This document shows positions 5,111 through 64,000 of a stretch of 64,000 nt of DNA, piece after piece. The stretch comes from Escherichia coli (GTDB lineage Bacteria > Pseudomonadota > Gammaproteobacteria > Enterobacterales > Enterobacteriaceae), in assembly GCF_024502345.1 (NCBI RefSeq), contig NZ_JALDNN010000001.1; one strand, 5' to 3'. A model generated the notes under the pieces. The model saw only the letters and a list, made by a program, of their open reading frames with translations, made no database searches and was not told the DNA's origin. Numbering within the stretch: position 1 is the stretch's first letter; each line of letters starts with the position of its first letter. Position numbers and translations under genes: made by a program.

Positions 5111-5483
5111 TATGCAAGGAGTATTTGATCATGTATAAGCAATAAAAACAGCTTCAGGAAATAAGGAATATCGCAATTTTTAAACATAAAATGCGAATCG
5201 TTCAATACAAAAAAGCAGCGTTGCGTAATCTTTCCCTGATTAAATACGCTACTGCCCTACCCTGATGACATGATCTGCACTGCACTATCATATAGACATG
5301 TTTCTCAACATGCGAAAAGATGTTTTATTTTCGGATTATATTAAATTGATATTTCATATAAAAAATGAAATTACATCAATCATATAAATAATTGTACCAA
5401 CTTTAATTACTATTCATAGCAAACAAATGGATATCCAGTTAACTACGCCAGTGATTCATTAACATTAACCTCCGGCATTATTG

Positions 5484-15306: not shown

Positions 15307-15650
15307 CAAGATCTTCTCATACTCTCCAGGTTTACAACATTATCCTTAATATTTACTTCTTTTTGCTGGCATCTACATTGAAATGAGTAGAAAACATCCC
15401 CCTACTGTCGTCTATACAAACAGCTTACTGATTCAAAGGGAATCTTGTTTTCACATTTTTCTATCATGAATACTTTATACGCGCGGGAGTCTATAAATGC
15501 TTTATACTTTCAAGGAATAACGCAAATATAAAAAGATGGCGTAAAGTATATGCATGGCAGGATGTTTGCAACCTCCTTCATGACGCTGCCCCATTGAAAT
15601 TGCAAACCCCGCCCTGGTTATCTTGCCCATTTATCATGCAAAACAGATAA

Positions 15651-16460
15651 TTATAGGCCTCTGAATACCTCAGAAAGATTGAATTTTTTATAGTCCCTCT
15701 CTTGAATATTTCCATTTGAAATCAATCGATTCATCTCTTCAACAAAATAATTTATATCATCACACTTGTTATTATCCGGAAGATCTGAGTAGTTATAATT
15801 CCACCATTTTATTCTCAACAGTTCATCAATAACATTTGAATCAAACCTAAATCTGATTATTTTTGCAGGAACTCCTGCAACTATGGCATATGGGGGCACA
15901 TCTTTGGTAACAACGGAATTGGCAGCAATAACAGCACCATCACCTATTGTGATGCCACCTTTCAATACAACATCATTTCCTATCCAGACATCATTTCCTA
16001 TAATCGGATTTTCAGGTTTTGTAATGAATGGTTTCAATGTCCAGCTACGTTCAAACTCACTCATAGCAAACTTATCAAATTCACCGTTATAAGTCATCAT
16101 GTGAGTAGTAAAACGATTCAAAGAATGATTTCCACCCATTATTTTTACATTTGATGCAATACTACAAAATCGACCTATACGTATATTCCCTGAAAAATGA
16201 CAGGTCGGAAATGAAAAAGCGCCGACACTGGAGAAATTTTTTACAGGCATTGTTGAATATTCTTCAGCAATAACATTATCTTCAATTGTTATCTTGTCAC
16301 CTTTTGAGAAAAGAAATAAATTCCTTTCTTTATACGACTTCTTCCCCTTATGATTTAAAAAGATTTTATTATCCATACAAAACTCAAAGTGTTTTTTCGT
16401 CCATCTGAAGGTAAGGGGTTTATTTTTATCTTCCGTGAATTTGTACAATTGAACTTTCAT
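15651..16460 (-). CDS. Hexapeptide-repeat (left-handed beta-helix) acetyltransferase, Vat/CatB-like xenobiotic acetyltransferase family, with N- and C-terminal extensions
   Basis: 269-aa ORF; motif …IIGNDVWIGNDVVLKGGITIGDGAVIAANSVVTKDVPPYAIVAGVPAKIIRFRF… typical of streptogramin/chloramphenicol acetyltransferases; gene and flanks are markedly AT-rich relative to neighbours. Confidence 0.75.
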   Translation of the reverse strand: MKVQLYKFTEDKNKPLTFRWTKKHFEFCMDNKIFLNHKGKKSYKERNLFLFSKGDKITIEDNVIAEEYSTMPVKNFSSVGAFSFPTCHFSGNIRIGRFCSIASNVKIMGGNHSLNRFTTHMMTYNGEFDKFAMSEFERSWTLKPFITKPENPIIGNDVWIGNDVVLKGGITIGDGAVIAANSVVTKDVPPYAIVAGVPAKIIRFRFDSNVIDELLRIKWWNYNYSDLPDNNKCDDINYFVEEMNRLISNGNIQERDYKKFNLSEVFRGL

Positions 16461-16669
16461 TGTTAATACTTCTACTTATAAAGTATTAGTTTAATAACGA
16501 TACTCTAAAGCCTTATGCTAATCAACTGTGACAGGATGAAAAATCGCCATCAAACATTTAGCCTAATTTTTACGCTAGTTATTAATGTAATCATTCTAAT
16601 ACTTAACCGCCATTAAACTCAGAACCGAAAACGATAGTGGCCGTCCTATAACAGCCACTAACATCTAAC

Positions 16670-18094
16670 TTAATGTTTAACCATGACGTGGCGGACGACG
16701 GTGTAATCCTCCAGCCCATAAAGTGACATATCCTTGCCGTAACCAGAAAGTTTCTGCCCACCGTGCGGCATTTCACTTACCAGCATGAAATGGGTATTGA
16801 CCCAGGTACAACCATATTGCAGTCGTGCGCTGACGCGATGCGCCCTGCCCACATCTTTCGTCCATACCGAAGATGCAAGTCCGTACTGGCTGTCATTCGC
16901 CCAGTTCACCACCTGTTCTTCGTTGTCGAAGAGCGTAACACTCACTACTGGACCAAATACCTCTTTTTGCACGATGGCATCGTCCTGTAATGCGCCAGCC
17001 AGCAGCGTCGGCTCATAGTAATAGCCATTACCCTTGCGCTTTTCACCGCCAGTGATCACTTTGATGTGCCCTGTCGCTTTCGCCTCTTCTACTGCCTTGC
17101 TGACGCGTTCGAGATGCGCCAGCGAGCTTAAAGGTCCAAGCTCCGTAGACTCGTCATCCGGCGCACCAGATTTTAACGTTGCCACTGCAGCACCGAGTTT
17201 TTCCACCAACGTATCGTAAATGCCTTTTTGCGCGTAGATCCGACAAGCCGCAGTACAATCCTGTCCGGCATTGTAATAGCCAAATGTACGTACACCTTCG
17301 ACCACTGCTTCAATATCCGCATCATCAAAAACAATCACTGGCGCTTTGCCACCAAGTTCCATATGAGTTCGCTTAATGGACGGCGCGGTATGGCTGATGA
17401 TGTGCTCGCCGGTGGCGATAGAGCCCGTCAGCGACACCATCCGCACTTTGGGATGACCGGTCAGCGGATCGCCCACCGTTTTGCCTCTGCCAAACAGCAC
17501 ATTAATCACGCCTGCCGGGAAGATATCTTTCGCCAGCCCTGCCAACTTCAACGCGGTCAGCGGGGTAATTTCTGATGGTTTAAGCACTACGCAGTTCCCT
17601 GCCGCCAGCGCCGGAGCAAGTTTCCACGCTGCCATCATCAGCGGATAATTCCACGGTGCGATAGAAGCCACGACCCCCAACGGATCGCGACGGATCATCG
17701 AAGTATGACCTTCAAGATATTCACCTGCCGCCAGACCATTCAGACAGCGCGCCGCACCCGCGAAAAAGCGAAAAACATCGACAATCGCCGGGATTTCATC
17801 ATTGAACGCACTATGCAGCGGTTTGCCACAATTACGGGACTCCAGTTCGGCAAAAACCTGACCATTTTCTTCGATTACATCAGCCAGTTTCAGCAGACAT
17901 TCCGCACGCACTTTCGGCGTGGTTTGCCCCCATTCGGCAAATGCTGCATCTGCCGCGCGCACAGCAGCATCGACCTGCTCTGCGGATGCCTCGGCAATCT
18001 CCAGTAAAACGTCCCCCGTTGCCGGACTATAGACAGGCTGTTTTTCCCCTTCGCCGCTAACCAGTTCTCCGTTAATCAGTAACTTATGTTGCAT
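16670..18094 (-). CDS. patD: Gamma-aminobutyraldehyde dehydrogenase
   Basis: 474-aa aldehyde dehydrogenase ORF; conserved position. Confidence 0.9.
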
Positions 18095-18115
18095 AGCATA
18101 TTCCTGTATCAGTGG

Positions 18116-18910
18116 TTATTGACCATTGTCGCCTTCGCGGGTTAGCCACCAGGCCCCCAGGATCGGCAAGGTTGTTACCAACATAACCAGCAGTGCCACC
18201 ACGTTAGTTACCGGTACATCACGCGGTCGCCCAAGCTGATTGAGCAACCACAACGGTAACGTTCGTTCATGACCTGCCGTAAAGGTCGTAACGATGATTT
18301 CATCGAACGACAAGGCAAACGCCAGCATTCCTCCTGCCAGTAACGCCGAACTGAGATTCGGCAACACTACGTAGCGGAAGGTTTGCCAGCCATTGGCCCC
18401 AAGATCCATTGACGCCTCAACCAGACTCCATGAGGTGCGGCGAAAACGGGCGATGACATTGTTAAACACCACAACTACACAAAAAGTCGCATGACCGACC
18501 ACGATGGTGAAAAATCCCGGCTCCAGATTGATGGTTTTAAAGGCGGTTAATAACGCCAGACCAGTGACAATGCCCGGCAGCGCAATGGGCAGCAGCAGTA
18601 ACAGCGAAATGGCGTTTTTGCCGAAAAAGTCTCGTCGCCACAGCGCGCCAGCTGCCAGCGTCCCTAACACCAGCGCCATTAATGTCGCCAGCGCCGCCAC
18701 TTTAAGTGACAGTGTCACGGCATCAAGAATATCACTACGCTGTGCTGCCACGCTAAACCAGCGCAGCGTCAGGCCCTGCGGTGGAAAACTAAACGCCGCA
18801 TCTTCAGTGTTAAACGCATAGGCGGCGATTATCAGGATGGGAAAATGTAGGAAAACAACGCCGCCCCAGGCCGCCAGTTTGAGGAAAAACGGTGCGCGTT
18901 CAGAGTGCAT
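18116..18910 (-). CDS. ydcV: ABC transporter permease
   Basis: 264-aa membrane ORF in four-gene ABC operon. Confidence 0.9.
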
Positions 18911-19841
18911 CGAACGCTCCCAGACGTTTCACGAACGCCAGGTACAGTGCGATGAGAACAATCGGCACCAGGGTGAATGCCGCCGCCATCGGCATATTGC
19001 CAATCGCCCCCTGCTGGGAATAAACCATATTGCCGATAAAATATCCTGGCGGGCCAACCAGCTGCGGGACGATAAAATCGCCCAGTGTGAGTGAGAAGGT
19101 AAAGATAGAGCCAGCGGCAATGCCCGGGATCGCCAGCGGCAGCACCACATAGCGAAAGGTTTGTCGTGGACGTGCGCCGAGATCAGCCGACGCCTGCAAC
19201 AATGACGGCGGCAAACGCTCAAGCGCCGCCTGCACGGGCAGGATCATGAACGGCAGCCAGATATAGAGAAACACCAGAAAGCGCCCCAGCCCGGAAGTTG
19301 ACAGCGTATTGCCGCCCACCGCAGGTAATGTAAGGAACGCAGTCAGCAGTGGTTCCAGCCCAAGATGTTGTAAAAACCACTGAGCCACGCCATCTTTTGC
19401 CAGCAATAACGTCCAGGCATAGGCTTTAACAATGTAGCTCGCCCACATCGGCAACATTACCGCAATATAAAAAAACGCTTTCATTTTCCCGCTGGTATAG
19501 CGCGCCATATACCACGCCATTGGAAAAGCCAGAATGGCGCTGGCGATAGTGACTGCCACAGCCATAGTCAGCGTGCGGAGAATGATGTCGTAATTTGCCG
19601 GATTAAACAGCGCACGGATGTTCGCCAGCGTCCGTTCCGGCGTTACCGACATGGTGAAATCGTCAAAGGTATAAAAGCCCTGCCATAACAGCGTTAGCAG
19701 CGAGCCGAAATAGACAATGCCAAACCACATTAGCGGGCCAAGCAGCAGCAAAAACAGCCCCAGCCCCGGATTCCGCCAGAAGAAACCGGACACCTTACCC
19801 AGACCTGGACGTGAAGGTGATTGCAATACGTTCATCGCCAT
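18900..19841 (-). CDS. ydcU: ABC transporter permease
   Basis: 313-aa membrane ORF overlapping ydcV. Confidence 0.9.
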
Positions 19842-20855
19842 TCACCTCTCCTCAACCAGCGGCACCATCACATCACGCGACCAGGAAACCATCACCTGTT
19901 GTCCGGGCGTGAGCGTGGCAGGCAGTTCTTCGCCTGTCATATTGGCCTGACTCACAAGCAGTTTTTCACCGCCGTTCAATTTCAGTTCAAAACGAGTTGC
20001 CGCGCCCTGATATTGCACCGCCTGGATCGTGCCATTGGCCTGCAGTTCACCAGAGGTGTTGAGGCGGATATGTTCCGGTCGCAGGGCGAAGCTTCCCGTC
20101 ATACCACAAAGTTTCTCTGCCATCAGTCCATCAAAAACATTCGATGTACCAACGAACCCGGCAACAAACGGCGTGCGCGGGCGCATATAGAGATCGCGCG
20201 GGGAATCGACCTGCTCAATGCGTCCATTATTGAAAACCGCCACACGATCGGACATCGATAATGCCTCGCCCTGATCGTGGGTGACGAAGATAAAAGTGAT
20301 GCCGAGAGACTGTTGCAGCTTTTTCAGCTCAAGCTGCATTTGTTCTCGCAATTTGAGATCCAGTGCGCCGAGCGGTTCATCCAACAGCAATACGCGCGGT
20401 TCGTTCACCAGAGCTCTGGCAATGGCGACTCGCTGACGTTGACCACCAGAAAGTTGTGACGGTTTGCGTTGCTGAACAAAACCCAGCGCCACTTTCTCCA
20501 GCGCCTCTTGCGCCATTGCGTGCCGCTGCTTTTTATTCACGCCTTTGACCATCAGCCCGTAGGCGACGTTGTCAAGAATCGACATATGCGGAAATAGCGC
20601 GTAGTCCTGGAAGACAGTATTCACGTCCCGCTCCCACGGTGGCAGATTGCTGGCGGGTTTACCAAAGATAGAGATAGCCCCGCCGGAAAGCTGTTCGAAG
20701 CCAGCAATCAGGCGCAGGCAGGTGGTTTTGCCGGAGCCGGACGGCCCCAGCATAGAGAAGAACTCACCATCTTTTATCGCAATACTGACGCCATCTACTG
20801 CGCGCACGTCACCGTACAACCGCGAGACGTTGTCAAACTCCACTGCGTACGTCAT
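19842..20855 (-). CDS. ydcT: ABC transporter ATP-binding protein
   Basis: Walker A GPSGSGKT, ABC signature LSGGQRQR, Walker B LLLDEP. Confidence 0.9.
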   Translation of the reverse strand: MTYAVEFDNVSRLYGDVRAVDGVSIAIKDGEFFSMLGPSGSGKTTCLRLIAGFEQLSGGAISIFGKPASNLPPWERDVNTVFQDYALFPHMSILDNVAYGLMVKGVNKKQRHAMAQEALEKVALGFVQQRKPSQLSGGQRQRVAIARALVNEPRVLLLDEPLGALDLKLREQMQLELKKLQQSLGITFIFVTHDQGEALSMSDRVAVFNNGRIEQVDSPRDLYMRPRTPFVAGFVGTSNVFDGLMAEKLCGMTGSFALRPEHIRLNTSGELQANGTIQAVQYQGAATRFELKLNGGEKLLVSQANMTGEELPATLTPGQQVMVSWSRDVMVPLVEER

Positions 20856-20872
20856 AAAGCACCCCAGCGAAG

Positions 20873-22018
20873 TTAGCGACCGCCCATAATGGCAATGTAA
20901 TCCTGCGTCCAGCGACTGTAGGGAACAAACTTGCCCCCTTCTGCTATAGGCGTTTTCCAGAAGGCTATTTTATCGAAATAGTTAAAACCGTTTGTTTCAC
21001 ACCCTTTCTCGCCTAATAACGAACTGGCTTTACACCCTTCCGGCACGACTGGTAACGAGCCAAACCAGGCCGCCACATCGCCCTGCACTTTTGGCGTTAA
21101 TGACCAGTTCATCCATTTGTAGGCGCAAACCGGATGTTTCGCTTCGCTATGTAGCATGGTGGTGTCAGCCCAACCGGTAACGCCCTCTTTCGGAAATACG
21201 GTAGCGACAGGCTGGCCTTCGGCTTTCAGGGCGTTGGCCTGATAGGGCCAGGCACTGGAAGCAACCACACCCTCGTTTTTGAAATCGCTCATTTGCACGG
21301 TAGTGTCATGCCAGTAGCGATGGATCAAACTATGTTGATCACGCAGCACTTTCAGCACCGCCTGGTACTGTTCTTCGGTGAGTTGATACGGATCGCTGAT
21401 GCCCAACTGCGGCTGAGTGGCTTTAACGAACAACGCAGCGTCCGCAATGTAGATAGGGCCATCATAAGCCTGGACGCGGCCTTTATTGCTCTTGCCGTCC
21501 GGCAGATTTTGCTCAACAAAAACCACTTGCCAGCTATCCGGCGGCGTCGGGAAGGTTTTAGTGTTGTACATCAGCAGGTTCGGCCCCCATTGGTAAGGTG
21601 TACCGTAAACTTTGCCGCCAACGTTAAACCAGTCGCCTTTAACCACGCGCGGATCGAGCGTTTTCCAGTTGGTAATCAAGGCGGTATTAATCGGCTGCAC
21701 GCGTTTACCCATAATCAAACGCAGCGAGGCATCGCCGGATGCCGTAACCAGATCGTAACCCCCTTTGGTCATCAGACTGACCATTTCATCGGAAGTCGCG
21801 GCGGTTTTAACATTCACCGCGCAGCCTGTCTCTTTTTCGAATTGCGTTACCCAGTCGTATTGTTTATCAGTTTGTCCGCGTTCGATATATCCCGGCCAGG
21901 CGATAATATCCAGTCGCCCTTCCGGTTTATCTAAATTGGTAGGCGGTTCGGCGGCGTGAGCGGTCATTATTGTCATGCTGAGCGCACACAGGCTGCTGCG
22001 GGCAAATGTCTTGCTCAT
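20873..22018 (-). CDS. ydcS: Periplasmic polyamine-type substrate-binding protein
   Basis: 381-aa ORF with signal peptide; first gene of the ydcSTUV operon. Confidence 0.9.
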   Translation of the reverse strand: MSKTFARSSLCALSMTIMTAHAAEPPTNLDKPEGRLDIIAWPGYIERGQTDKQYDWVTQFEKETGCAVNVKTAATSDEMVSLMTKGGYDLVTASGDASLRLIMGKRVQPINTALITNWKTLDPRVVKGDWFNVGGKVYGTPYQWGPNLLMYNTKTFPTPPDSWQVVFVEQNLPDGKSNKGRVQAYDGPIYIADAALFVKATQPQLGISDPYQLTEEQYQAVLKVLRDQHSLIHRYWHDTTVQMSDFKNEGVVASSAWPYQANALKAEGQPVATVFPKEGVTGWADTTMLHSEAKHPVCAYKWMNWSLTPKVQGDVAAWFGSLPVVPEGCKASSLLGEKGCETNGFNYFDKIAFWKTPIAEGGKFVPYSRWTQDYIAIMGGR

Positions 22019-22262
22019 AAGGTCTTACTCCTGTCGTAATTAATTGTTCAGCCGCCGTGCCGTAAAAATATCTCCTTGTTTAACCATAGACGGCGGCTTG
22101 CAGGCACACCTTCGCCCCTGAGAAAATTTAATCAGGTTGTGAGCTACCGCGCATTATACCGTCTGTAAGGTTATCTTCTGGAGTATAGTCAAGGAGTTAG
22201 GAAATATGACTGCTATTCGAAATTCATATTACCCAATCTAAGAGGAATTAAATTAAACGCTA

Positions 22263-23669
22263 TTACAGCCGTTCTTGAATAAGTTTGCCTAATTGTTTTA
22301 CCGCCTGTTCTTCACGTTCTCCCCACTGCCACGCGGTATTAAAACGAAAAAAACGTGACCAGTTTTCACCGGTAGAAAACATTTTACCCGGCGCAATACT
22401 GATATGATGCGTCAGTGCCGCCAGGCTCAATTCGCCGGCATCTAACGGCTCGGGGAGCTCCAGCCAGAGAAAATAACCGCTGTCATTATGATGAATTTTC
22501 ACTTCCGCAGGCAGATAACGCAGCAGTGCCTGCCAGGCACGTTGTTTACGTTCCGCAAGCTGGCGACGCAGGCGACGAAGATGGGCGTCGTATCGGCGCG
22601 TGGAAAGGTAATCCACCAGCGCAAGCTGCATCGGTGAGCTGGTGGAAAGCGTACTCATCAACTGCAATCGTTGAATTTTACGTGCATGTTTTCCGGCGGC
22701 GACCCAACCAATACGAAAACCAGGCACCAGACATTTCGAAAACGAAGAGCAATGCAAAACGCCATCGTGGCGATCCCACGCTTTCGCAGTCAGCGGTTTT
22801 TCCCGTCCAAAATAAAGTTCGCTGTAAACGTCATCTTCAATCAGCGTTACGTTGTACTGATTGAGCAACGCCACCAGTTGTGCTTTTTTTTGCGGCGTTA
22901 AGGTAAATCCGAGTGGATTCTGGCTATTAGTCATCAGCCAGCACGCTTTCACCGGATACTCCTGCAACGCCAGTTCCAGCGCCTGAAGATCGATCCCTTC
23001 TTTAACATCCGTCGCCACCGATAACGCCTTCAGCCGTAGCCGCTCCAGCGCCTGCAACGCACCGTAGAAACAAGGATTCTCTACTATCACCCAATCGCCC
23101 GGTTCAGTTACCGCTTGCAAACTGAGGTTTAATGCCTCTAACGCCCCGGCAGTAATGACAATTTCATCAGGAGAAATGGTGATGCCCTGTAAGGCATAGC
23201 GACGGGCAATAGCCTGACGCAGTTCTGCGTTTCCTGGCGGCAAGTTTTCAATCACGCTCATCGCCGTGGCGGTTTTGCTTACCTGCGCCAGCGAGCGGTT
23301 TAGTTGTTGGAGGGGGAAAAGTCGCGGGTCGGGAAAGGCCGAGGCAAACGGAACGACCGACGGATCGCGACTGGCCTGCAACATATCAAAAATATAAGTG
23401 TTGATATCGACTGCTTCATCTCGAGTGACTGGAATGACTGGCGCTTTCGGCATTTTTATTGCCTGTGGCGCAACGTAATAACCCGACTGCGGTCGTGCGA
23501 TAATATATCCCTGACTTTCGAGCAACTGATAGGCATGGCTGACAGTCATAAAGCTCATGCCAGAAAGCGCCACCTGGTCACGCAACGAAGGCAAACGATC
23601 GCCGGGTTGCCAGATACCCGACGCAATCTGCTCGCGTAATTGTTCTGCAAGCTGCTGGTATTTTTTCAT
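22263..23669 (-). CDS. ydcR: MocR-family regulator (GntR HTH fused to aminotransferase-like domain)
   Basis: 468-aa ORF with N-terminal HTH and PLP-fold C-terminal domain. Confidence 0.9.
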   Translation of the reverse strand: MKKYQQLAEQLREQIASGIWQPGDRLPSLRDQVALSGMSFMTVSHAYQLLESQGYIIARPQSGYYVAPQAIKMPKAPVIPVTRDEAVDINTYIFDMLQASRDPSVVPFASAFPDPRLFPLQQLNRSLAQVSKTATAMSVIENLPPGNAELRQAIARRYALQGITISPDEIVITAGALEALNLSLQAVTEPGDWVIVENPCFYGALQALERLRLKALSVATDVKEGIDLQALELALQEYPVKACWLMTNSQNPLGFTLTPQKKAQLVALLNQYNVTLIEDDVYSELYFGREKPLTAKAWDRHDGVLHCSSFSKCLVPGFRIGWVAAGKHARKIQRLQLMSTLSTSSPMQLALVDYLSTRRYDAHLRRLRRQLAERKQRAWQALLRYLPAEVKIHHNDSGYFLWLELPEPLDAGELSLAALTHHISIAPGKMFSTGENWSRFFRFNTAWQWGEREEQAVKQLGKLIQERL

Positions 23670-23747
23670 TATCGAATCGTAATTATGTGCAGATGATTCG
23701 GCAGTCTATATCAGTTGTTAAAAATGACAACTTTTCATTAACTGTTA

Positions 23748-24185
<438 letters not shown>

Positions 24186-52637: not shown

Positions 52638-53694
52638 GGCTTTGTTGAATAAATCGAACTTTTGCTGAGTTGAAGGATCAGATCACGTATCTTCCCGACA
52701 ACGCAGACCGTTCCGTGGCAAAGCAAAAGTTCAAAATCACCAACTGGCCCACCTACAATAAAGCCCTCATCAACCGTGGCTCCATAACTTTCTGGCTGGA
52801 TGATGAAGCTATTCAGGCCTGGTATGAGTCAGCAACACCTTCTTCACGAGGCAGACCTCAGCGCTATTCTGACCTTGCCATCACGACTGTGCTGGTCATT
52901 AAACGCGTATTCAGGCTGACCCTGCGCGCTGCGCAGGGCTTTATTGATTCCATTTTTTCTCTGATGAACGTTCCGCTACGCTGCCCGGATTACAGCTGTG
53001 TCAGCAGGCGGGCAAAGTCGGTTAATGTCAGTTTCAAAACGCCCACCCGGGGTGAAATCGCACACCTGGTAATTGATTCCACCGGGCTGAAGGTCTTCGG
53101 TGAAGGCGAGTGGAAAGTCAAAAAGCATGGCCAGGAACGCCGCCGTATCTGGCGTAAGCTGCATCTCGCCGTTGACAGTAAAACACATGAAATCATCTGC
53201 GCTGACCTGTCGCTGAACAACGTTACGGACTCAGAGGCCTTCCCCGGGTTAATCCGGCAAACCCACCGGAAAATCAGGTCAGCCGCCGCCGATGGCGCTT
53301 ACGATACCCGGCTATGTCACGATGAACTGCGGCGTAAGAAAATCAGCGCGCTTATCCCTCCCCGAAAAGGTGCGGGTTACTGGCCCGGTGAATATGCAGA
53401 CCGTAACCGTGCAGTGGCTAATCAGCGAATGACCGGGAGTAATGCGCGGTGGAAATGGACAACAGATTACAACCGTCGCTCGATAGCGGAAACGGCGATG
53501 TACCGGGTAAAACAGCTGTTCGGGGGTTCACTGACACTGCGTGACTACGATGGTCAGGTTGCAGAGGCTATGGCCCTGGTACGAGCGCTGAACAAAATGA
53601 CGAAAGCAGGTATGCCTGAAAGCGTGCGTATTGCCTGAAAACACAACCCGCTACGGGGGAGACTTACCCGAAATCTGATTTATTCAACAAAGCC
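52638..53694 (+). mobile_element. IS903-family insertion sequence, 1057 bp, copy 2 (identical to copy 1, same orientation)
   Basis: Same 18-bp terminal inverted repeats; the encoded ORFs are identical to copy 1; no target-site duplication. Confidence 0.85.
52715..53638 (+). CDS. IS903-family DDE transposase
   Basis: Identical to the transposase ORF at 4131..5054. Confidence 0.8.
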   Translation: MAKQKFKITNWPTYNKALINRGSITFWLDDEAIQAWYESATPSSRGRPQRYSDLAITTVLVIKRVFRLTLRAAQGFIDSIFSLMNVPLRCPDYSCVSRRAKSVNVSFKTPTRGEIAHLVIDSTGLKVFGEGEWKVKKHGQERRRIWRKLHLAVDSKTHEIICADLSLNNVTDSEAFPGLIRQTHRKIRSAAADGAYDTRLCHDELRRKKISALIPPRKGAGYWPGEYADRNRAVANQRMTGSNARWKWTTDYNRRSIAETAMYRVKQLFGGSLTLRDYDGQVAEAMALVRALNKMTKAGMPESVRIA

Positions 53695-54038: not shown

Positions 54039-54287
54039 TTATCATTCCGTGATATTCAGTTTGCTCTATGGTGCATCAATTGTGATGGCGGAGATATCAC
54101 AACGCGGAGCATCAACGTAAATTCGGAATATATCAAGATGTGGTGGATGGTTTTCCTACACATCTGTTTGATTACCGACTGGATGTCAGTGAGATACCAT
54201 CGATCACTGTACGAATCAATGAATCCATTGCCTTTTCCCTGATTATCCAGCCGCAAATCCTGGCCTTAAACATATGCACTCCATGCC

Positions 54288-54328
54288 ATTAAAAAAGAAA
54301 CAAAAGGGAAATGCATCTTTCCCTTTTG
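54288..54328 (-). terminator. Rho-independent terminator downstream of ydbC
   Basis: 11-bp stem CAAAAGGGAAA/TTTCCCTTTTG followed on the minus strand by a T-rich run. Confidence 0.55.
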
Positions 54329-54336
54329 TATATTCG

Positions 54337-55197
54337 TTATTCTCGCGAAATACCATCCAACGTAGACAACACTTCCTCAGAAAGATGCAATTTTTCAGCA
54401 GCCATATTCTCCCGTAAATGCGCAACAGAAGACGTCCCTGGGATCAGCAAAATATTCGGTGAACGTTGTAACAGCCACGCCAGCGCCACCTGCATGGGTG
54501 TTGCACCCAGGCTCGCAGCAACATCGGAAAGTGTGGACGATTGCAGCGGTGTAAAGCCCCCGAGCGGGAAGAACGGCACGTAGGCAATGCCATCGTGGGC
54601 CAAAGCATCAATCATTGCATCATCAGCACGGTGCGCGATGTTGTATTCGTTTTGCACACAGACAATTTCGGCAATCTTGCGCGCCTCTGCAACCTGCGTC
54701 GGTGTGACATTGCTCAGGCCAATATGTTTTACCAGGCCTTGTTGTTGCATCTCTGCCAGCACGGTCAGGCTGGCCTCAATCGATCCTTCCGCTGGGCCAT
54801 GACCATCCCCCATCATAACGCGCAGGTTAACCACATCCAGCACGTCCAGCCCGAGATTACGTAGATTATCGTGCACCGCTTTTTGCAGCTCTGCCGGAGA
54901 AAATGCGGGCAACCAGGAAGCGTCCTCTCCACGCCGCGCACCAATTTTAGTGACAATTGTCAGGTCGTCAGAGTAAGGATAAAGCGCTTCGCGGATAATC
55001 TGATTGGTGACGTGCGGACCATAAAAGTCGCTGGTATCAATGTGAGTGACGCCCAATGCCAGCGCCTCACGCAGCACAGTTATAGCGACGTGGCGATCTC
55101 TTGGGGGACCAAAAACCCCAGGACCTGCCAGTTGCATCGCGCCATAACCAAGACGGTTAACGGATTTTGTACCGAGAGTAAATGTATTGCTGCTCAT
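54337..55197 (-). CDS. pdxI: Aldo-keto reductase (pyridoxine 4-dehydrogenase PdxI/YdbC)
   Basis: 286-aa AKR-fold ORF. Confidence 0.85.
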   Translation of the reverse strand: MSSNTFTLGTKSVNRLGYGAMQLAGPGVFGPPRDRHVAITVLREALALGVTHIDTSDFYGPHVTNQIIREALYPYSDDLTIVTKIGARRGEDASWLPAFSPAELQKAVHDNLRNLGLDVLDVVNLRVMMGDGHGPAEGSIEASLTVLAEMQQQGLVKHIGLSNVTPTQVAEARKIAEIVCVQNEYNIAHRADDAMIDALAHDGIAYVPFFPLGGFTPLQSSTLSDVAASLGATPMQVALAWLLQRSPNILLIPGTSSVAHLRENMAAEKLHLSEEVLSTLDGISRE

Positions 55198-55351
55198 CGC
55201 ACCCTGCCCTGTAATAAAACGGATTGAGAAAAATCAGTATAGAAACGAAAAGAGATAAATAATGCGAAGGCGTAAACAAGATTACTGGATGAGTTGCTCT
55301 ATTGTCCTGAAAAACACAAAACAAAACGCGTCAAGTACCGCATCCGGCAAT

Positions 55352-55383
55352 AAAAAACCGCAACCTGTATAGCGTTGCGGTTT
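55352..55383 (-). terminator. Rho-independent terminator downstream of paaY
   Basis: CCGCAAC/GTTGCGG stem with T-run on the minus strand. Confidence 0.55.
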
Positions 55384-55425
55384 AGGTATCACATGCTAAA
55401 AATTAGAATGTTCAGTATCTGGACG

Positions 55426-56016
55426 TTACTGTTTCGGTCGCAGATTCTCATCAAATACCAGACGTTTCCTGTTCGGTTCAACTTCCCGCAATGGCTCAAC
55501 TTGATGCAACGTCTGCTTACAACGAGTCACCAGCACCTGATACTCATGCGTACCCTGCTTTTTCCATGCCAGCTCCTGCTCACTGAGTTCACGAATCGCT
55601 TTCGCCGGGCTGCCGACAATCAGGTAATTGGCAGGCATTTCTGCTTTGGCTTTCACAAATGCGGATGCGCCAACAATGCTGTTCTCGCCAATCACCGCGC
55701 CGTCCATCACTACCGCGTTCATTCCCACTAATGCATTGCGGCGGATAATGCAACCATGAAGGATAGCGCTATGACCAATATGCCCATCTTCTTCCACGAC
55801 AGTATCCTGTTCGGGAAAACCGTGCATAACGCAATTATCCTGAATGTTCGCGCCATCTTTCACTACGATACGACCAAAATCGCCACGCAGATTGGCATTT
55901 GGCCCAACGTAAACGCCCTTGCCGAGAATAACATCGCCGATCAATACCGCTGTCGGATGGACAAAACTCTCTTCTGGCACAACCGGAGTCAGACCATCTA
56001 TCTGGTAAATTGGCAT
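55426..56016 (-). CDS. paaY: Hexapeptide-repeat thioesterase PaaY
   Basis: 196-aa left-handed beta-helix ORF; position downstream of the paaX remnant. Confidence 0.85.
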
Positions 56017-56555
56017 AACGCCTCCTGTTCAATATTCAAACCGCCAAAACGTTGAAAATACAGGCTTCCCGGCGCAGGCAGTTCACCGACCGAGGTTTCA
56101 CCTTTTTCACTAACGAACGCTAAAGCAGCAGGCGCTACGCGCTGATAAATGTTGATACACAGCTGACGCGCCGTATGCCCTGCCCAGTGCGCCGGAAGCA
56201 ACTCCTCTGGCAACAATGGGTCTTTAAGGACGACACGGCGATAAAAATGGATCAGTAAAAGCTGAATATGAAATGCACGCTCCGGGGTTAACTCGTCTGC
56301 TGCCTCTTTTAACAGCGGCACCAGCGGGCGGAATGACTGAATAAAGGTTTCGTACATGGCATTTTGTTCAGTTAAATGCCAGCACTCTTCCACTCTGGCA
56401 CGCAGTGCTGCACGAGAAAGCGCCAGTGGTATTTGCGCTTCAAAACAAATCACGTTATCCGCCAGAAGGGCATTATTTAGCGCATTACGTGCGGCGGGAC
56501 GGTTAAGGGTCAGCAACAATACTTGTTGCTGACGGCTGACGATCAGTTCGCTCAT
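55998..56555 (-). pseudogene. In-frame fusion remnant: first ~31 codons of enoyl-CoA hydratase PaaF joined to the C-terminal ~154 codons of repressor PaaX
   Basis: N-terminus MSELIVSRQQQVLLLTLNRPAARNALNNALL is a crotonase-type start, but the remainder lacks crotonase features and sits where the paaX 3' end should be; junction near 56462. Confidence 0.6.
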
Positions 56556-57193
56556 GCCATCCCCTTCGCGTCAAAGTCAACCACCACATCGCTGGTCAGC
56601 GGCAGTGCCTGGCAACTCAACACATAGCCTGCGGCCAGTTCATCCGGTTCCAGACTGTAATTGGTTTCCATCGCCACTTTGCCACGCAGCACTTTGCATT
56701 TGCAGGTCGCACAGACGCCGCCTTTGCAGGCATAGGGCAGATCAGCCCCCTGGCGCAATGCCGCATCGAGAATGCTTTCATCGTCGGCATTAAGCACGAT
56801 TTCCCGATCCCGCCCATCCTGACGTACAGTCACTTTTTGTCCGTCACTTTGCACGTTAACGCTACGTTTGACGCGCGTGCCAGGCGTATTAAACCGCTCC
56901 AGATGAATGGTTTTATCTGGCATTCCCAGTGCTTTTAAGGCGGCTTCCGTCTCATCCATCATCGCCGCCGGACCACAAATAAATGCCTCATCATAAAGAC
57001 GAAAATTAATGAGCGAGGCCCCAAGTGACTGTAATTTTTCACCGTCAATACGCCCGTGAAGCAGATCGCTGTCGAGGGTTTCCTGACTGAAAATGCACAA
57101 CAACTGTAAACGCTGAGGATATTTGTCTTTCAGGTCTGCCAGTGCCTGGCGAAACATCATGCTCTGGCTGGTACGGTTACCGTAGATCAGGGT
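56552..57193 (-). pseudogene. paaE: 3' fragment of paaE (ferredoxin-NADPH reductase subunit; 2Fe-2S C-terminal domain retained, N-terminal FAD domain deleted)
   Basis: CKGGVCATCKCKVL 2Fe-2S motif; the frame extends upstream of the listed Met to about 57193, where homology ends. Confidence 0.65.
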
Positions 57194-57956
57194 GATGCCC
57201 GCACAAAACCAGCGACATGCTCTGCAACTGGCTTGTGCAGGCGGCGGTAGCCTTGCGGGAACGCTGGTGACGGCTGATCCGCAAATTGCGCGTCAGTTTA
57301 TTGCCGACGCGGCACGTACGCATGGGCGAATTCAGATCCTCAATGAAGAATCGGCAAAAGAATCCACCGGGCATGGCTCCCCACTGCCACAACTGTTACA
57401 TGGTGGGCCTGGTCGCGCAGGAGGCGGTGAAGAATTAGGTGGTTTACGAGCGGTGAAACATTACATGCAGCGAACCGCTGTTCAGGGTAGTCCGACGATG
57501 CTTGCCGCTATCAGTAAACAGTGGGTGCGCGGTGCGAAAGTCGAAGAAGATCGTATTCATCCGTTCCGCAAATATTTTGAGGAGCTGCAACCAGGCGACA
57601 GCCTGTTGACTCCCCGCCGCACAATGACAGAGGCCGATATTGTTAACTTTGCTTGCCTCAGCGGCGATCATTTCTATGCACATATGGATAAAATTGCTGC
57701 TGCCGAATCTATTTTTGGTGAGCGTGTGGTACATGGATATTTTGTGCTTTCTGCGGCTGCGGGTCTGTTTGTCGATGCCGGTGTCGGTCCGGTCATAGCT
57801 AACTACGGGCTGGAAAACTTGCGTTTTATCGAACCCGTAAAACCAGGCGATACCATCCAGGTGCGTCTCACCTGTAAGCGCAAGACGCTGAAAAAACAGC
57901 GTAGCGCAGAAGAAAAACCAACAGGTGTGGTGGAATGGGCGGTATGGGCACGCTAA
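57194..57956 (+). pseudogene. paaZ: 3' fragment of paaZ (end of ALDH domain plus MaoC hot-dog hydratase domain); last ~20 codons replaced at the tynA junction
   Basis: MaoC-like region …[19 protein letters not shown]…VVHGYFVL…; divergent from the paaE fragment with no intervening paaA-D. Confidence 0.65.
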
Positions 57957-58963
57957 CCTCACCAATTGCTCGTGGTAAAGATGCCCCGTCTAACGCAGTG
58001 CTCCTTAATGAAACCATCGCCGACTACACTGGCGTGCCGATGGAGATCCCTCGCGCTATCGCGGTATTTGAACGTTATGCCGGGCCGGAGTATAAGCATC
58101 AGGAAATGGGCCAGCCCAACGTCAGTACCGAACGCCGGGAGTTAGTGGTGCGCTGGATCAGTACAGTGGGTAACTATGACTACATTTTTGACTGGATCTT
58201 CCATGAAAACGGCACTATTGGCATTGATGCCGGTGCTACGGGCATCGAAGCGGTGAAAGGTGTTAAAGCGAAAACCATGCACGATGAGACGGCGAAAGAT
58301 GACACGCGCTACGGCACGCTTATCGATCACAATATCGTGGGTACTACACACCAACATATTTATAATTTCCGCCTCGATCTGGATGTAGATGGCGAGAATA
58401 ACAGCCTGGTGGCGATGGACCCAGTGGTAAAACCGAATACTGCCGGTGGCCCACGCACCAGTACCATGCAAGTTAATCAGTACAACATCGGCAATGAACA
58501 GGATGCCGCGCAGAAGTTTGATCCGGGCACGATTCGTCTGTTGAGTAACCCGAACAAAGAGAACCGCATGGGCAATCCAGTTTCCTATCAAATTATTCCT
58601 TATGCAGGTGGTACTCACCCGGTAGCAAAAGGTGCCCAGTTCGCGCCGGACGTGTGGATCTATCATCGTTTAAGCTTTATGGACAAGCAGCTTTGGGTAA
58701 CGCGTTATCATCCTGGCGAGCGTTTCCCGGAAGGCAAATATCCGAACCGTTCTACTCATGACACCGGTCTTGGACAATACAGTAAAGATAACGAGTCGCT
58801 GGACAACACCGACGCCGTTGTCTGGATGACCACCGGCACCACACATGTGGCCCGCGCCGAAGAGTGGCCGATTATGCCGACCGAATGGGTACATACTCTG
58901 CTTAAACCATGGAACTTCTTTGACGAAACGCCAACGCTAGGGGCGCTGAAGAAAGATAAGTGA
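57941..58963 (+). pseudogene. tynA: 3' fragment of copper amine oxidase tynA (C-terminal catalytic domain, about 340 codons)
   Basis: TPQ-site motif VGNYDY and conserved His ligands; N-terminal domains and signal peptide absent. Confidence 0.7.
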
Positions 58964-58973
58964 TTGTTTCAGA

Positions 58974-59002
58974 CAAAAAAACGGCACCAGGTGCCGTTTT
59001 TT
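58974..59002. terminator. Bidirectional terminator between tynA and feaB
   Basis: A7-ACGGCAC-CAG-GTGCCGT-T6. Confidence 0.6.
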
Positions 59003-59020
59003 ACTTATGAGCGAACCAGA

Positions 59021-60523
59021 TTAATACCGTACACACACCGACTTAGTTTCACACCAACCGTCCAGCCAGTCGGGGCCAAAATCACGGCCCGTTCCTGACT
59101 GCTTCATCCCACCAAACGGTAAGTTAGCGTCAATTAAGGTATGGCTGTTTACCCACACCGTCCCTGCCTGTAAGCGATCGCTATATTCCAGAGCCTGGGA
59201 GAGATTTTGCGTCCAGACACTGGCAGTTAAGCCATATTCCGTGTCGTTTGCCAGTTGTAACGCCTCTTCTCCATCCGCTACTCGCACCAGGTTTACCACC
59301 GGACCAAACACCTCTTCACGAGTTAAGCGCAATTTAGCATCGGGATTTACCACCAGCGTTGGCGCAACATAATACCCCTCTCCGGCTGGTCCATTCGACC
59401 CGCGAATCAGCTCTGCTTGCTGTGCCTGCGCATCGTCGAGGAATGAACACACTTTGTCGCAGTGCGCACGAGAAACCAAAGGGTTAATCTGTGCAACAGG
59501 TGACATCCCCGGTCCCACTTGCAACGATTTTACCGCCTGCTCAAATCCACTAACCAGCGTGTCAAACAACGGCGCTTCAATATAAATTCGCGAACTGGCG
59601 GCGCATACTTGCCCTTGATTCAGGAAGCTTCCGGTCATCAAGCCTTCAATAACCCATTGCGGATCAGCATCTTTTAATACAATTGCCGGGTTTTTACCGC
59701 CCAGTTCCAGCGTTACACGCGTTAAGTGATCAGCAGCAGTTCTGGCAATACCTTTTCCCGTCGCGGTTGAACCGGTAAAACTGATTTTCGCAACATGAGG
59801 ATGTGACGTCAGGGCCGCGCCGCATACAGCACCTGACCCGGTGACCACATTAAAAACGCCATCAGGGATACCAGCCTCGCTGGCCAGTTCCGCCACGCGC
59901 AACATCGTCAGTGGCGTGGTTTCCGAAGGCTTAATCACGATTGAACAGCCTGCTGCCAGTGCTGGCATCACCTTCCACATACCAATCATCAACGGAAAGT
60001 TCCATGGCACAATTCCCGCCACTACGCCAACCGGCTCTTTACGCGTCCAGGCCTGATAACGCGCCCCCTGGGGTAAGGGAATCGACAAGTCCAGCGTTTT
60101 ACCCGCGATTTTGGTCGTTAACCCGGCGGTATAACGCATCCAGTTCAGCGTACAGCCCACTTCAAAAGCACGGGAAATGGCAATTGACTTGCCTTGCTCC
60201 AGGGTTTCCAGTTGCGCCAGCTCCTCACTGTGCTGTTCCACCAGATCGGCAAAACGTAGCAGAATACGTTCACGCTCTGCGGGTAATCGCCCGGCCCAGC
60301 GACGCGAGACAAAGGCCCGCCAGGCAGACATGACTGCGTTATCTACATCCGCTTCGTTGGCATCAGCAGTAGACGCAATTTCTTGCCCGGTGGCCGGATC
60401 AAAGATCGCCAATCGTTTTTCACTTTGTGCGGGGCCTGGACGACCATCAATATAAAGACCGTGTTGACGATCGAGAAACTGTTGGACCTGGCTTAATACT
60501 GCTACATGCGGCTCTGTCATCAC
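59021..60523 (-). CDS. feaB: Phenylacetaldehyde dehydrogenase
   Basis: 500-aa ALDH ORF. Confidence 0.9.
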
Positions 60524-60755
60524 TTTTCCTTATTATTTACCCAGTGTGATTTCAGTGTACGCAGCGACAAGAAAAGTCACTTTTTTCGCTGTGACATTCG
60601 CTTTGTCAGCTGTGACAAGCTCCGCAAATCGTGACAATAACCGCTTATGTCTCTATGCCTGACAAGACTTATTTCCTATAGTCAGGCTCATTAGCATCGT
60701 TTACTGCAACACAAATGCAACAATAAAAATACATTTCACAGAGCGAAAACGTGCC

Positions 60756-61661
60756 ATGAACCCCGCAGTGGATAATGAGTTTCAGCAATGGCTTTCCCAA
60801 ATCAATCAGGTATGCGGAAATTTTACCGGACACCTGCTGACTGAGCGTTACACGGGTGTACTGGATACGCATTTTGCCAAAGGACTAAAGCTGAGTACCG
60901 TGACAACCAGCGGGGTGAATTTATCCCGCACCTGGCAGGAAGTAAAAGGCAGCGACGATGCCTGGTTTTACACCGTTTTTCAGCTTAGTGGTCAGGCAAT
61001 AATGGAGCAGGATGAGCGTCAGGTGCAGATTGGCGCTGGCGATATTACGTTACTCGATGCCTCACGCCCCTGTTCGCTTTACTGGCAGGAGTCTTCTAAA
61101 CAGATTTCATTACTTTTGCCACGCACTCTGCTGGAACAATATTTTCCCCATCAAAAACCTGTCTGCGCAGAAAGACTGGACGCTGACTTACCCATGGTGC
61201 AACTCAGTCATCGCCTGTTACAGGAGAGCATGAATAATCCGGCACTTTCTGAAACAGAAAGTGAAGCTGCGCTACAGGCGATGGTGTGTCTGCTGCGCCC
61301 GGTACTTCATCAGCGGGAATCTGTTCAACCTCGTCGTGAACGTCAGTTTCAAAAAGTGGTTACGTTGATAGACGATAATATTCGCGAAGAGATATTACGC
61401 CCGGAGTGGATAGCCGGAGAGACAGGTATGTCAGTACGTAGTTTGTACCGAATGTTTGCCGATAAAGGTTTGGTGGTCGCGCAATATATTCGTAACCGTC
61501 GTCTCGATTTTTGTGCAGATGCGATTCGCCATGCCGCAGATGATGAAAAACTGGCAGGCATCGGCTTTCATTGGGTATTTTCTGACCAGAGTCATTTTTC
61601 AACGGTATTTAAGCAACGCTTTGGGATGACGCCAGGCGAGTATCGACGTAAATTCCGCTAA
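60756..61661 (+). CDS. feaR: AraC-family activator of tynA/feaB
   Basis: 301-aa ORF with C-terminal AraC HTH. Confidence 0.85.
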   Translation: MNPAVDNEFQQWLSQINQVCGNFTGHLLTERYTGVLDTHFAKGLKLSTVTTSGVNLSRTWQEVKGSDDAWFYTVFQLSGQAIMEQDERQVQIGAGDITLLDASRPCSLYWQESSKQISLLLPRTLLEQYFPHQKPVCAERLDADLPMVQLSHRLLQESMNNPALSETESEAALQAMVCLLRPVLHQRESVQPRRERQFQKVVTLIDDNIREEILRPEWIAGETGMSVRSLYRMFADKGLVVAQYIRNRRLDFCADAIRHAADDEKLAGIGFHWVFSDQSHFSTVFKQRFGMTPGEYRRKFR

Positions 61662-61696
61662 CTAATTGGCGTTGTGTGTACTGCAACGCCAATTAG
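61662..61696 (+). terminator. 13-bp stem hairpin immediately after feaR stop
   Basis: CTAATTGGCGTTG-(9-nt loop)-CAACGCCAATTAG. Confidence 0.45.
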
Positions 61697-61832
61697 TTAA
61701 AACAAATATTTGACTATGCATTTTTCAGGGCGAAAGGCAATTTGACAGGAGTTTTTGAATATTCACCTTGTTTCAGGAAAATAGATCAATCGCTTTCTCC
61801 TGTAGCGTTATCCCGATATTGCGGTTTTGCTA

Positions 61833-62159
61833 TTAAAATTTTCGCACCCATTTACCGTTTATCCCTTGTACATATTCCCCCGGTTTGGCCCGAGCTACGA
61901 GCTTTTGCCCGGCGAGTTTCGCGATATCATCTACAGACACATTATTTTGCTTTGCCAGTTGTTGGTAACTCGCTTTACGTTCGGCATTAATGTCGGTTAC
62001 TAATTTCTCTGTTTCAGCATCCGTTTTCAGCGCAACCAGATAACCATAAAATGTTTCCCCGACCCGCCCCTGCGTTCTGGCTTCATCCAGAGTCAATGCC
62101 ATTACATTGCTGCTTACCAGCCCAACAAGAAACGCACAAAGAAGTAATGTTTTCTTCAT
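61833..62159 (-). CDS. ydbL: Periplasmic protein YdbL (DUF1318)
   Basis: Start taken at MKKTLLLCAFLVG (signal peptide), 108 aa. Confidence 0.75.
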   Translation of the reverse strand: MKKTLLLCAFLVGLVSSNVMALTLDEARTQGRVGETFYGYLVALKTDAETEKLVTDINAERKASYQQLAKQNNVSVDDIAKLAGQKLVARAKPGEYVQGINGKWVRKF

Positions 62160-62166
62160 CATCGCC

Positions 62167-62352
62167 TCAGAAAAGATCGCTACGAGTTTCAAGCAGCTCT
62201 TCGACATCTTTGTCTGCCTTGATGATGATCTCATGCTCAATTTTAACGTTCATATTGATAGTGATCGGTTCCTTGGGCGCAGCGACTTCAATACGCGGCG
62301 TACAGGCAGCCAGCATAAAAGATGACGTCAACGCAGCCAGTAAAATTTTCAT
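62167..62352 (-). CDS. ynbE: Lipoprotein YnbE
   Basis: 61-aa ORF with lipobox LAACT. Confidence 0.75.
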   Translation of the reverse strand: MKILLAALTSSFMLAACTPRIEVAAPKEPITINMNVKIEHEIIIKADKDVEELLETRSDLF

Positions 62353-64000
62353 TGTTTTTCCTCACACTCTTTTCCTTGCGGACAGTCATTTCCCGGCAGA
62401 CGTGCGTTCTGCTCCAACCATGCCTGGAGATTATCGCCAAAGCGTAAACTGCGCCACAGCGTAAAAATATTCTCTTCATGATGGTAATTAAGGTTTACCG
62501 TACCGCTTTTACCATCAACGCGACTGGTACCTGTAATGTTGGCCTGCATGGTTAATAAACCGAGATTATCTAAATTAATATTTGTCGATGAACGGCTAAT
62601 TTCCATATAGCGCAACCAGTTAATTGCTGAACCCGCAGTCATATTGTCTTTCACCACCGCATCTGCGGTGTCTTTATCCAGCCGCAAGGTCATTGGCCCG
62701 CTATTTGCCAGCCAACCATCTTTCACTATCCATTTTTCGTTGTTTAGCCATAACGGCAATGCACCACTAAATGCCCCGGACATGGCGAATTGTTTCGGAT
62801 TGACGGCGCTAACCAGTTCGCTGGATGAGAGATTATTCAGCCGCAACAGCGCCGGGTCATGTTGCGGCATACGTAATTGTTTCATCAGTACGTTACCGCC
62901 TAACACATCGACGCTAACATCAGTCAACAGCAAGGGTTCTTCTTCAGTCCACGGATAACGCCCTTGCAAATCAGCCGTAATATTTTTCGCTGTCACCAGA
63001 TTAATCACTTCGGCAATTCGCAACGTAACGGGGCCGCGAGTCCCCAGATGCCAGGCTCCATCGGCAAAACGGAAAGGCAGGACAAAATCGACACCGTTAA
63101 CCTGATTATCTGGCATCCAGGCACTACCGCCTTTCAACACGCCGTGCCCTCCCGCGCGGAATCCTTGTTCAGGCGCAGCAGAAAATGCAACCTGAGCATA
63201 CAGTTCACCATCGCGTAAGTTCATCTTCCAGTCGGGTGGCACCAGCGGCTGGAATACAGTCAGTGATTGTTTTGGCCACCAGGCGTTACCGCGCAGACGA
63301 ATACCGTCCCAGCGACCATTTACCCGAACCGGGCCAATCTCACCAGCATGTAAATCGCCTTTAAAGAGGAAATACGTCGGATCGCGCCCATCGACGCTAA
63401 ATTTTAAGGTTGATGGCGGTAACACACTGCCGCCAGTGAACAGCGTTTGCCCGGCGTCCAGTGACAGCGCGCCGCTGAAGGAGGGATGCTGTGCGTCACG
63501 TACCCAGACGACGGGCTTGTCGAGAATTAATCGCGGCTTTTCTACCGTCATCGTACCGTATTGTAACTGGTCGAAACCGGTGGAGAGGTCGGTCAGCGTA
63601 ATCGTGCTGTCATGCCATTCACCTTTTCCTGCGACATCCCAGGTGGCATTCATCGGTGTAAAACTGCCTTTTCCCCAGTAGCGCCACTGCCAGCGGCCCG
63701 CGTCAGGGAGAAAATCATTCGCCAGCCCATCCATATGCAGCACGAAATCGCCCAGTTCATTTTCATGCGCCTGCAAAATGGCCTGCAAACGTCCGTCAAC
63801 ACCACGTTGGGTGACTTTTACACCCGCTAAAGGCCAGCGGATTTCATCGATGTCCAGCGAATCGATGACTCTTCCCTTTGAACGAAGTAACGCGCCTGGC
63901 TCAAAGGCCAGCGTTGGGTCAGTCAGACTTCCACTTAGCTGCGCGGGTAAGCGGGCATATAAAATGAGGTCCGCCTGTTTCGCTTCACCGGTCAGCTGCA
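62349..64000 (-). CDS. ydbH: AsmA-family protein YdbH, C-terminal part (5' end outside window)
   Basis: Long minus-strand ORF overlapping the ynbE start; conserved ydbH-ynbE-ydbL arrangement. Confidence 0.75.
   Translation of the reverse strand, partial: QLTGEAKQADLILYARLPAQLSGSLTDPTLAFEPGALLRSKGRVIDSLDIDEIRWPLAGVKVTQRGVDGRLQAILQAHENELGDFVLHMDGLANDFLPDAGRWQWRYWGKGSFTPMNATWDVAGKGEWHDSTITLTDLSTGFDQLQYGTMTVEKPRLILDKPVVWVRDAQHPSFSGALSLDAGQTLFTGGSVLPPSTLKFSVDGRDPTYFLFKGDLHAGEIGPVRVNGRWDGIRLRGNAWWPKQSLTVFQPLVPPDWKMNLRDGELYAQVAFSAAPEQGFRAGGHGVLKGGSAWMPDNQVNGVDFVLPFRFADGAWHLGTRGPVTLRIAEVINLVTAKNITADLQGRYPWTEEEPLLLTDVSVDVLGGNVLMKQLRMPQHDPALLRLNNLSSSELVSAVNPKQFAMSGAFSGALPLWLNNEKWIVKDGWLANSGPMTLRLDKDTADAVVKDNMTAGSAINWLRYMEISRSSTNINLDNLGLLTMQANITGTSRVDGKSGTVNLNYHHEENIFTLWRSLRFGDNLQAWLEQNARLPGNDCPQGKECEEKQ

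Follow-up and report, generated by a model that had tools for sequence, protein, structure and literature searches.

Two reading frames that overlap out of register, one beginning within paaZ and the other within tynA, raise the question of how this arrangement came about in an Escherichia coli chromosome and what it means for the pathway to which both genes belong. The reading we favor, with a probability of about 0.88, is that of a natural deletion scar: loss of DNA by short homology, death of the pathway, and later erosion of what remained.

A Colinear Locus with Blocks Missing

The window, by which we mean the whole 64-kb stretch analyzed, is E. coli chromosome with ~98.3% identity to K-12, spanning narZYWV to ydbH in the orientation opposite to the K-12 map. 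The locus in question serves phenylethylamine/phenylacetate catabolism, with the gene order pdxI-paaY-paaX-paaK..A / paaZ-tynA / feaB / feaR. BLAST against K-12 DH5alpha (L001) resolved it into four blocks, all colinear with that reference: window 54244-56464 corresponds to L001 1855-4077 (pdxI, paaY, and the 3′ part of paaX), 56460-57195 to 10508-11243 (the start of paaF and the 3′ part of paaE), 57193-57944 to 15665-16416 (internal paaZ), and 57940-64000 to 18001-24061 (the 3′ part of tynA onward).

A tblastn search that took every K-12 Paa, TynA, and Fea protein as query found paaY, feaB, feaR, and pdxI complete in the window, and none of paaA, B, C, D, G, H, I, J, or K there. The full-length paaY (55426..56016, minus strand) encodes 196 aa with 99.5% identity to K-12; feaB, for phenylacetaldehyde dehydrogenase, is likewise full length (59021..60523, minus strand), its pathway step now orphaned, as is feaR (60756..61661, plus strand), the activator of tynA and feaB. 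In a sister sample, SRR24000611, feaR is frameshifted by a 1-nt deletion (L008 ~13976), which fits relaxed selection on an orphaned regulator.

The Junction between paaZ and tynA

At the boundary between the last two blocks (57940-57944; hereafter J3), paaZ codon 653 is joined out of frame to tynA codon 418. The joint was aligned base by base with K-12 DH5alpha, the O121 strain RM8352 (L018), and the horse strain A30 (L019), and all three references agree: the flanks are colinear and 97.6-100% identical, and 1,589 bp present in the intact references is absent between them. The sequence CGGTA stands at both ends of the missing segment, in paaZ codons 652-653 and tynA codons 417-418 of the intact references, and is kept once at the joint. 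Lost are paaZ codons 654-681, the intergenic region, and tynA codons 1-417. The open reading frame at 57192..57956 (plus strand) ends in VVEWAVWAR and a stop; since 1,589 equals 3 × 529 + 2, the paaZ frame picks up three foreign codons (W-A-R) before ending at the TAA at 57954-57956, and the overlapping frame at 57935..58963 reads as K-12 TynA from residue 418.

A first-pass annotation of this DNA had described this pair of frames and had proposed the deletion of the 3′ end of paaZ, the intergenic region, and the 5′ half of tynA; the frames are borne out by the open reading frames and by K-12 TynA from residue 418 on, and the deletion holds by BLAST and by base-by-base alignment to three references. 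Its count of about 23 missing C-terminal paaZ codons was too low, the actual loss being 28 sense codons (654-681), and the N-terminal loss from tynA, put there at about 415 codons, is real and covers residues 1-417. The bases shared at the joint, given as GGT(A) at 57941-57944, do represent a short homology, which exact alignment extends to the five bases CGGTA (57940-57944) common to both ends of J3. As to a full-length tynA elsewhere, tblastn found no other tynA sequence within the 64-kb window.

When 200,000 random paaZ/tynA breakpoint pairs were simulated on the reference, microhomology of at least 5 bp arose with a frequency of 0.0057 (0.055 for at least 3 bp, 0.16 for at least 2 bp), so that the 5-bp overlap at J3 is unlikely to be accidental, with the qualification that this figure of 5 bp depends on an ancestral allele of the CGGTA type. 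The frequency supports the earlier suggestion that the short homology is consistent with a microhomology-mediated deletion. As for the qualification, E. coli alleles differ at the second base of the repeat within paaZ; those of strains NH-21 and HS-01 read CTGTA, and from a CTGTA-type ancestor the exact overlap would be just 1 bp. The retained 752 bp of paaZ is 100% identical to the paaZ allele of O121 RM8352 and of A30, and both of these alleles read CGGTA; on this comparison, a CGGTA-type paaZ allele in the J3 ancestor would be the most parsimonious assumption, albeit not a proven one.

These alignments show that in the ancestor the feaR-feaB-tynA-paaZ-paaA..K-paaXY locus was intact and of the ordinary E. 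coli type and that 1,589 bp was lost between the two copies of CGGTA. Neither the base-by-base alignment nor a repeat scan found an IS end, a repeat, filler DNA, or a recombinase-type site at J3. What the joint does have, colinear flanks, a repeat above chance length kept once, and a clean transition, is the pattern of a short-homology deletion scar.

The clean joint bears on the possibility that an insertion sequence made the deletion, by adjacent deletion or IS-IS recombination, and was lost afterwards. Such activity has left its traces in the vicinity: the window holds two identical, directly oriented 1,057-bp copies of IS903B (4054-5110 and 52638-53694), both without 9-bp target duplications and both adjoining missing DNA. 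At the first, yddE is cut short and the K-12 genes that separate it from yncG are missing; at the second, ynbC′-ynbB-′ynbA was lost alongside, an IS903B-adjacent deletion cutting ynbC, ynbB, and ynbA. The nearest complete genome, that of strain 873.10 (99.4% identity over 23.8 kb of flanking DNA), has moreover lost the whole locus to IS1, with an IS1B in place of ynbB-ynbA-pdxI-paa-tynA-feaB-feaR (L017, NZ_CP061754.1 2652185-2652882). However, a deletion made by an IS leaves that element at the joint, as the IS903B copies abut the endpoints of their losses, whereas no IS abuts 57940-57944: J3 passes directly from paaZ through CGGTA into tynA, without any intervening foreign base or IS terminal repeat, and it is equally clean in nine independent samples. 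IS-mediated deletion clearly operates near the locus and is unsupported at J3, for which we regard an IS origin as very improbable.

Two Further Deletions within 1.5 kb

The paaZ sequence is also cut at its 5′ side, and two more deletions lie within 1.5 kb, features that the first-pass annotation had overlooked; its account was incomplete rather than wrong, J3 being one of several scars left as the locus eroded step by step. At J2 (57193-57195), paaE′ is joined to ′paaZ with TGA common to both ends and 4,424 bp missing, and the loss comprises paaE codons 1-142, paaD, C, B, and A, the divergent paa promoter region, and paaZ codons 1-403. The paaE 3′ remnant (56552..57195, minus strand; PaaE residues 143-356) now stands head-to-head with the paaZ fragment. 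Because J2 and J3 bound it on either side, “paaZ” here amounts to a 752-bp internal fragment (57193..57944, plus strand), codons ~404-653 of 681.

The remaining deletion, J1 (56463-56464), lies 736 bp to the left of the paaZ fragment, so that J1, J2, and J3 all fall within 1.5 kb. It joins paaX′ to ′paaF with CA common to both ends, and the 6,435 bp lost, an in-frame length (3 × 2145), took most of paaF, all of paaG, H, I, J, and K, and the N-terminal DNA-binding half of paaX. The outcome is a chimeric frame of 185 codons (55998..56555, minus strand) in which PaaF residues 1-32 continue in frame into the PaaX C-terminal domain; it scored below the NCBIfam cut-offs of both families. Measured against random breakpoint pairs, the chance of the overlap seen is P = 0.055 for the 3 bp at J2 and P = 0.16 for the 2 bp at J1.

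The erosion is local to this dispensable catabolic locus and not genome-wide. Comparison of 44 upstream genes with K-12 found all except ynbC, ynbB, and ynbA to align essentially at full length and in one piece, which rules out a broad, Shigella-like genome decay. The missing ydbD (54138-54243) was considered as a further deletion and dropped: between ynbA and pdxI it is replaced by a 106-bp spacer, and this arrangement is common in E. coli, with 481 complete genomes covering at least 80% of the spacer probe. Two other differences from K-12 were observed in the window. A 1.3-kb insert between yncL and patD (15356-16668) holds a 269-codon frame (15651-16460, minus strand) for a hexapeptide-repeat acetyltransferase resembling the Vat/CatB-type xenobiotic acetyltransferases, which scored under every NCBIfam cut-off; and ~375 bp running from the first IS903B copy to yncG (5111-5485) was unmatched in the K-12 stretch compared.

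Relatives Carrying the Junctions

Exact-protein look-ups, queried with the remnants of TynA (342 codons) and PaaZ (253 codons), and exact junction strings recovered J3 together with J2 in contigs of nine independent samples: Logan assemblies of five runs (ERR972159, SRR24000611, SRR36242540, ERR1600703, and SRR32820517), three ENA metagenome assemblies (ERZ27263756, ERZ773152, and ERZ27262646), and the NCBI assembly GCA_050022275.1. These contigs were produced by different assembly pipelines, and each matches the window at 99.94% identity or more. Both J3 and J2 are absent from all 5,426 complete RefSeq E. coli genomes, and an exact scan for the 26-mer spanning J3 gave zero matches in genome_contigs (one genome per species) and in the JGI metagenome_contigs. 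No mention of the sample accessions of this lineage was found in the literature.

Three deletions in 1.5 kb look unusual, but apart from this and the general possibility nothing suggests that J3 is an assembly artefact, a chimera, or an engineered deletion. The exact 26-mer recurs in nine NCBI, ENA, and Logan samples, metagenomes included, from different assemblers, which rules out misassembly and points to a near-clonal natural lineage; as to engineering, there is no FRT or lox scar and no cassette, the breakpoints lie inside open reading frames, and J3 is out of frame. We consider an artificial origin of either kind scarcely credible.

The lineage contigs also place the deletions in order. 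Whereas J2 and J3 co-occur in every lineage contig found, a recovery biased towards contigs with both, since the look-up protein requires J3 and starts at J2, J1 was seen only in the window and in GCA_050022275.1, and paaF to paaX is complete in the five lineage contigs that extend far enough to show it. With J1 confined to a sub-branch, J2 and J3 came first and J1 later, that is, by stepwise erosion. The window is the more derived of the two J1 carriers: 337 bp of ynbB/ynbA beside IS903B is gone from it and still present in GCA_050022275.1. An apparent truncation of paaH in lineage members, where the gene is called at 460 aa, was set aside, as the full 475-codon frame is open and the shorter call reflects the gene caller's choice of start.

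Remnant Proteins and Predicted Loss of Function

The domain content of the two remnants indicates what can have survived. Complete PaaZ combines an aldehyde dehydrogenase domain (Aldedh, residues 27-497) with a whole C-terminal hot-dog domain; with codons ~404-653 alone, the fragment keeps the last 94 residues of the former together with the Pfam MaoC match and is without the final 28 residues. In TynA, the Pfam domains are N1 (34-110), N2 (124-209), N3 (216-316), and the catalytic domain (337-750). The 3′ remnant (57940..58963, plus strand) encodes TynA residues 418-757 plus the stop and therefore is without the signal peptide, N1 to N3, 81 residues of the catalytic domain, and precursor Asp413. 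This residue corresponds to mature Asp383 in the numbering checked here, which is the catalytic base in the literature on the E. coli copper amine oxidase (ECAO). The remnant retains precursor Tyr496, mature Tyr466, the tyrosine that gives rise to TPQ, and the His motifs of the copper ligands. With residues 1-417 gone, Asp413 included, the remnant falls short of a functional copper amine oxidase.

Could the remnants have been retained for a function, either because the 253-codon PaaZ fragment works as a hydratase on its own or because the 342-codon TynA frame is expressed? Both frames are open and were called as genes, the whole Pfam MaoC match (residues 536-650) lies inside the PaaZ fragment, and the fragments are identical across the nine samples. 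These samples are near-clonal, however, so that identity is uninformative on selection; the hydratase domain is minus its last 28 residues, and the TynA fragment has neither signal peptide nor catalytic base. Nor is there an evident source of transcription: a consensus scan of 56400-59100 found no sigma-70-like promoter, against 2.5 expected from shuffled sequences, and the deletions have removed the promoters that natively serve paaZ, paaA-K, and tynA. Retention for function is accordingly a very doubtful proposition, and both remnants are best regarded, on their coding content, as pseudogene fragments. Amine oxidase activity and growth on 2-phenylethylamine and phenylacetate are predicted, from the domain content, to be lost.

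The Same Locus in Other E. coli

The species has lost this locus repeatedly. Around 40% of complete E. coli genomes are without any match to it, and tynA has been described as variably present, missing from O157:H7, and a dispensable “reserve” metabolic gene (PMC4640556). As is predicted for the window lineage, such tynA-negative E. coli (e.g., O157:H7, PMC4640556) have lost the periplasmic copper amine oxidase and with it growth on 2-phenylethylamine; unlike that lineage, they were scored by PCR as lacking the gene, whereas the window lineage has a 3′ remnant (418-757) fused to a paaZ remnant.

Deletions inside the locus were found in other strains. Strain SW071610 has a paaE′-′tynA deletion, HS-01 a paaE′-′paaZ deletion, and NH-21 a deletion of ~390 bp inside tynA; together with 873.10, they share with the window lineage the same locus and a broken phenylethylamine/phenylacetate pathway. 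The joints of SW071610 and HS-01 are clean and inside open reading frames, as J3 is. The breakpoints and the lineages differ nevertheless, and none of the four strains carries J2 or J3. On the paaE side, SW071610 (L006 ~6080) and HS-01 (L016 ~9135) break at the identical nucleotide, equivalent to window position 57179, at the center of the 13-nt palindrome TACGGTTACCGTA and 16 nt from J2. The right ends of their deletions differ, lying in tynA and in paaZ, respectively, and the two events were independent. The paaE side was examined as a deletion hot spot with 200-bp probes in complete genomes and rejected: the probe was broken in 8/3,145 genomes on the paaE side, in 20/3,164 at the paaZ 3′ end, and in 7/3,271 in the middle of tynA, so that there is no enrichment over the two control probes.

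These strains also bear on the question of whether a single complex event (two successive template switches at a stalled replication fork, or the mending of a region broken at several points) produced both J2 and J3 and left the 752-bp paaZ island behind. Consistent with a single event, all J3 contigs carry J2 and no complete genome has either alone, both joints have short homology, and the paaZ island has kept its order and orientation. The co-occurrence is weakened by the bias of the look-up protein noted above, however, and single deletions are found in the same locus in the strains just described; J1, a deletion of the same kind 736 bp away, arose later, which demonstrates that serial independent deletions occur here. 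We therefore hold one complex event to be unlikely, while giving it more weight than the other alternatives. More tentative again, and rather improbable, is its extension, in which J2 and J3 would be the product of one multi-jump event, a bacterial counterpart of the “deletion-retained segment-deletion” pattern of template-switching rearrangements in eukaryotes, and paa-tynA would have preferred breakpoints, for which the common breakpoint in the palindrome of two seemingly unrelated strains, SW071610 and HS-01, is invoked.

Proposed Origin and Mechanism

Returning to the natural deletion scar, we propose that J3 was formed by RecA-independent short-homology (illegitimate) recombination. The favored route would be the rejoining of a broken chromosome after resection, by RecBCD/LigA-dependent alternative end-joining; the alternative would be template switching during replication between the two CGGTA repeats. 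As the repeats are 5 bp long and 1.6 kb apart, we consider the rejoining of a resected break somewhat likelier than slippage, although end-joining and replication slippage cannot be told apart from sequence alone.

By losing its export signal, N-terminal domains, catalytic base, and FeaR-dependent promoter, TynA would have ceased to provide a periplasmic amine oxidase, and J2 and J3 together would abolish the route from 2-phenylethylamine via phenylacetaldehyde and phenylacetate to central metabolism at stages one and three, leaving feaB, feaR, and paaY stranded. With the pathway dead, the remainder was probably free to erode under relaxed selection, and a further 6,435 bp was then lost in the sub-branch to which the window belongs.

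Deletions flanked by microhomology have been reported in bacterial pseudogenes and tied to alternative end-joining (PMC6054270); for A-EJ in E. coli, we refer to Chayot et al. (2010) as discussed in PMC6054270. J3 resembles the deletions of that study in its clean joint, its few shared bases, the absence of a mobile element, and the setting of relaxed selection, and its kilobase-scale loss adds to the deletional bias in a manner akin to those pseudogene deletions. The scale and the organisms differ: the events described there were mostly small indels in symbiont genomes (PMC6054270), whereas the E. coli lineage described here is free-living and its deletions span 1.6-6.4 kb.

Implications

For practical purposes, the J3 26-mer is a clean marker, having picked out nine samples of a poorly represented E. 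coli clone. A PCR or gene-presence screen directed at the tynA 3′ half or at the MaoC region of paaZ would falsely score this lineage as positive, although it is predicted to grow on neither 2-phenylethylamine nor phenylacetate and to lack periplasmic amine oxidase. The process is ordinary gene decay, a well-known one of which this is a fresh instance, and existing views are unchanged by it. What the locus offers is a series, in which members of the lineage carrying two deletions come before a sub-branch carrying three, and with it a small but well-resolved snapshot of a dead catabolic locus shrinking through kilobase-scale losses at joints that share 2-5 bp.
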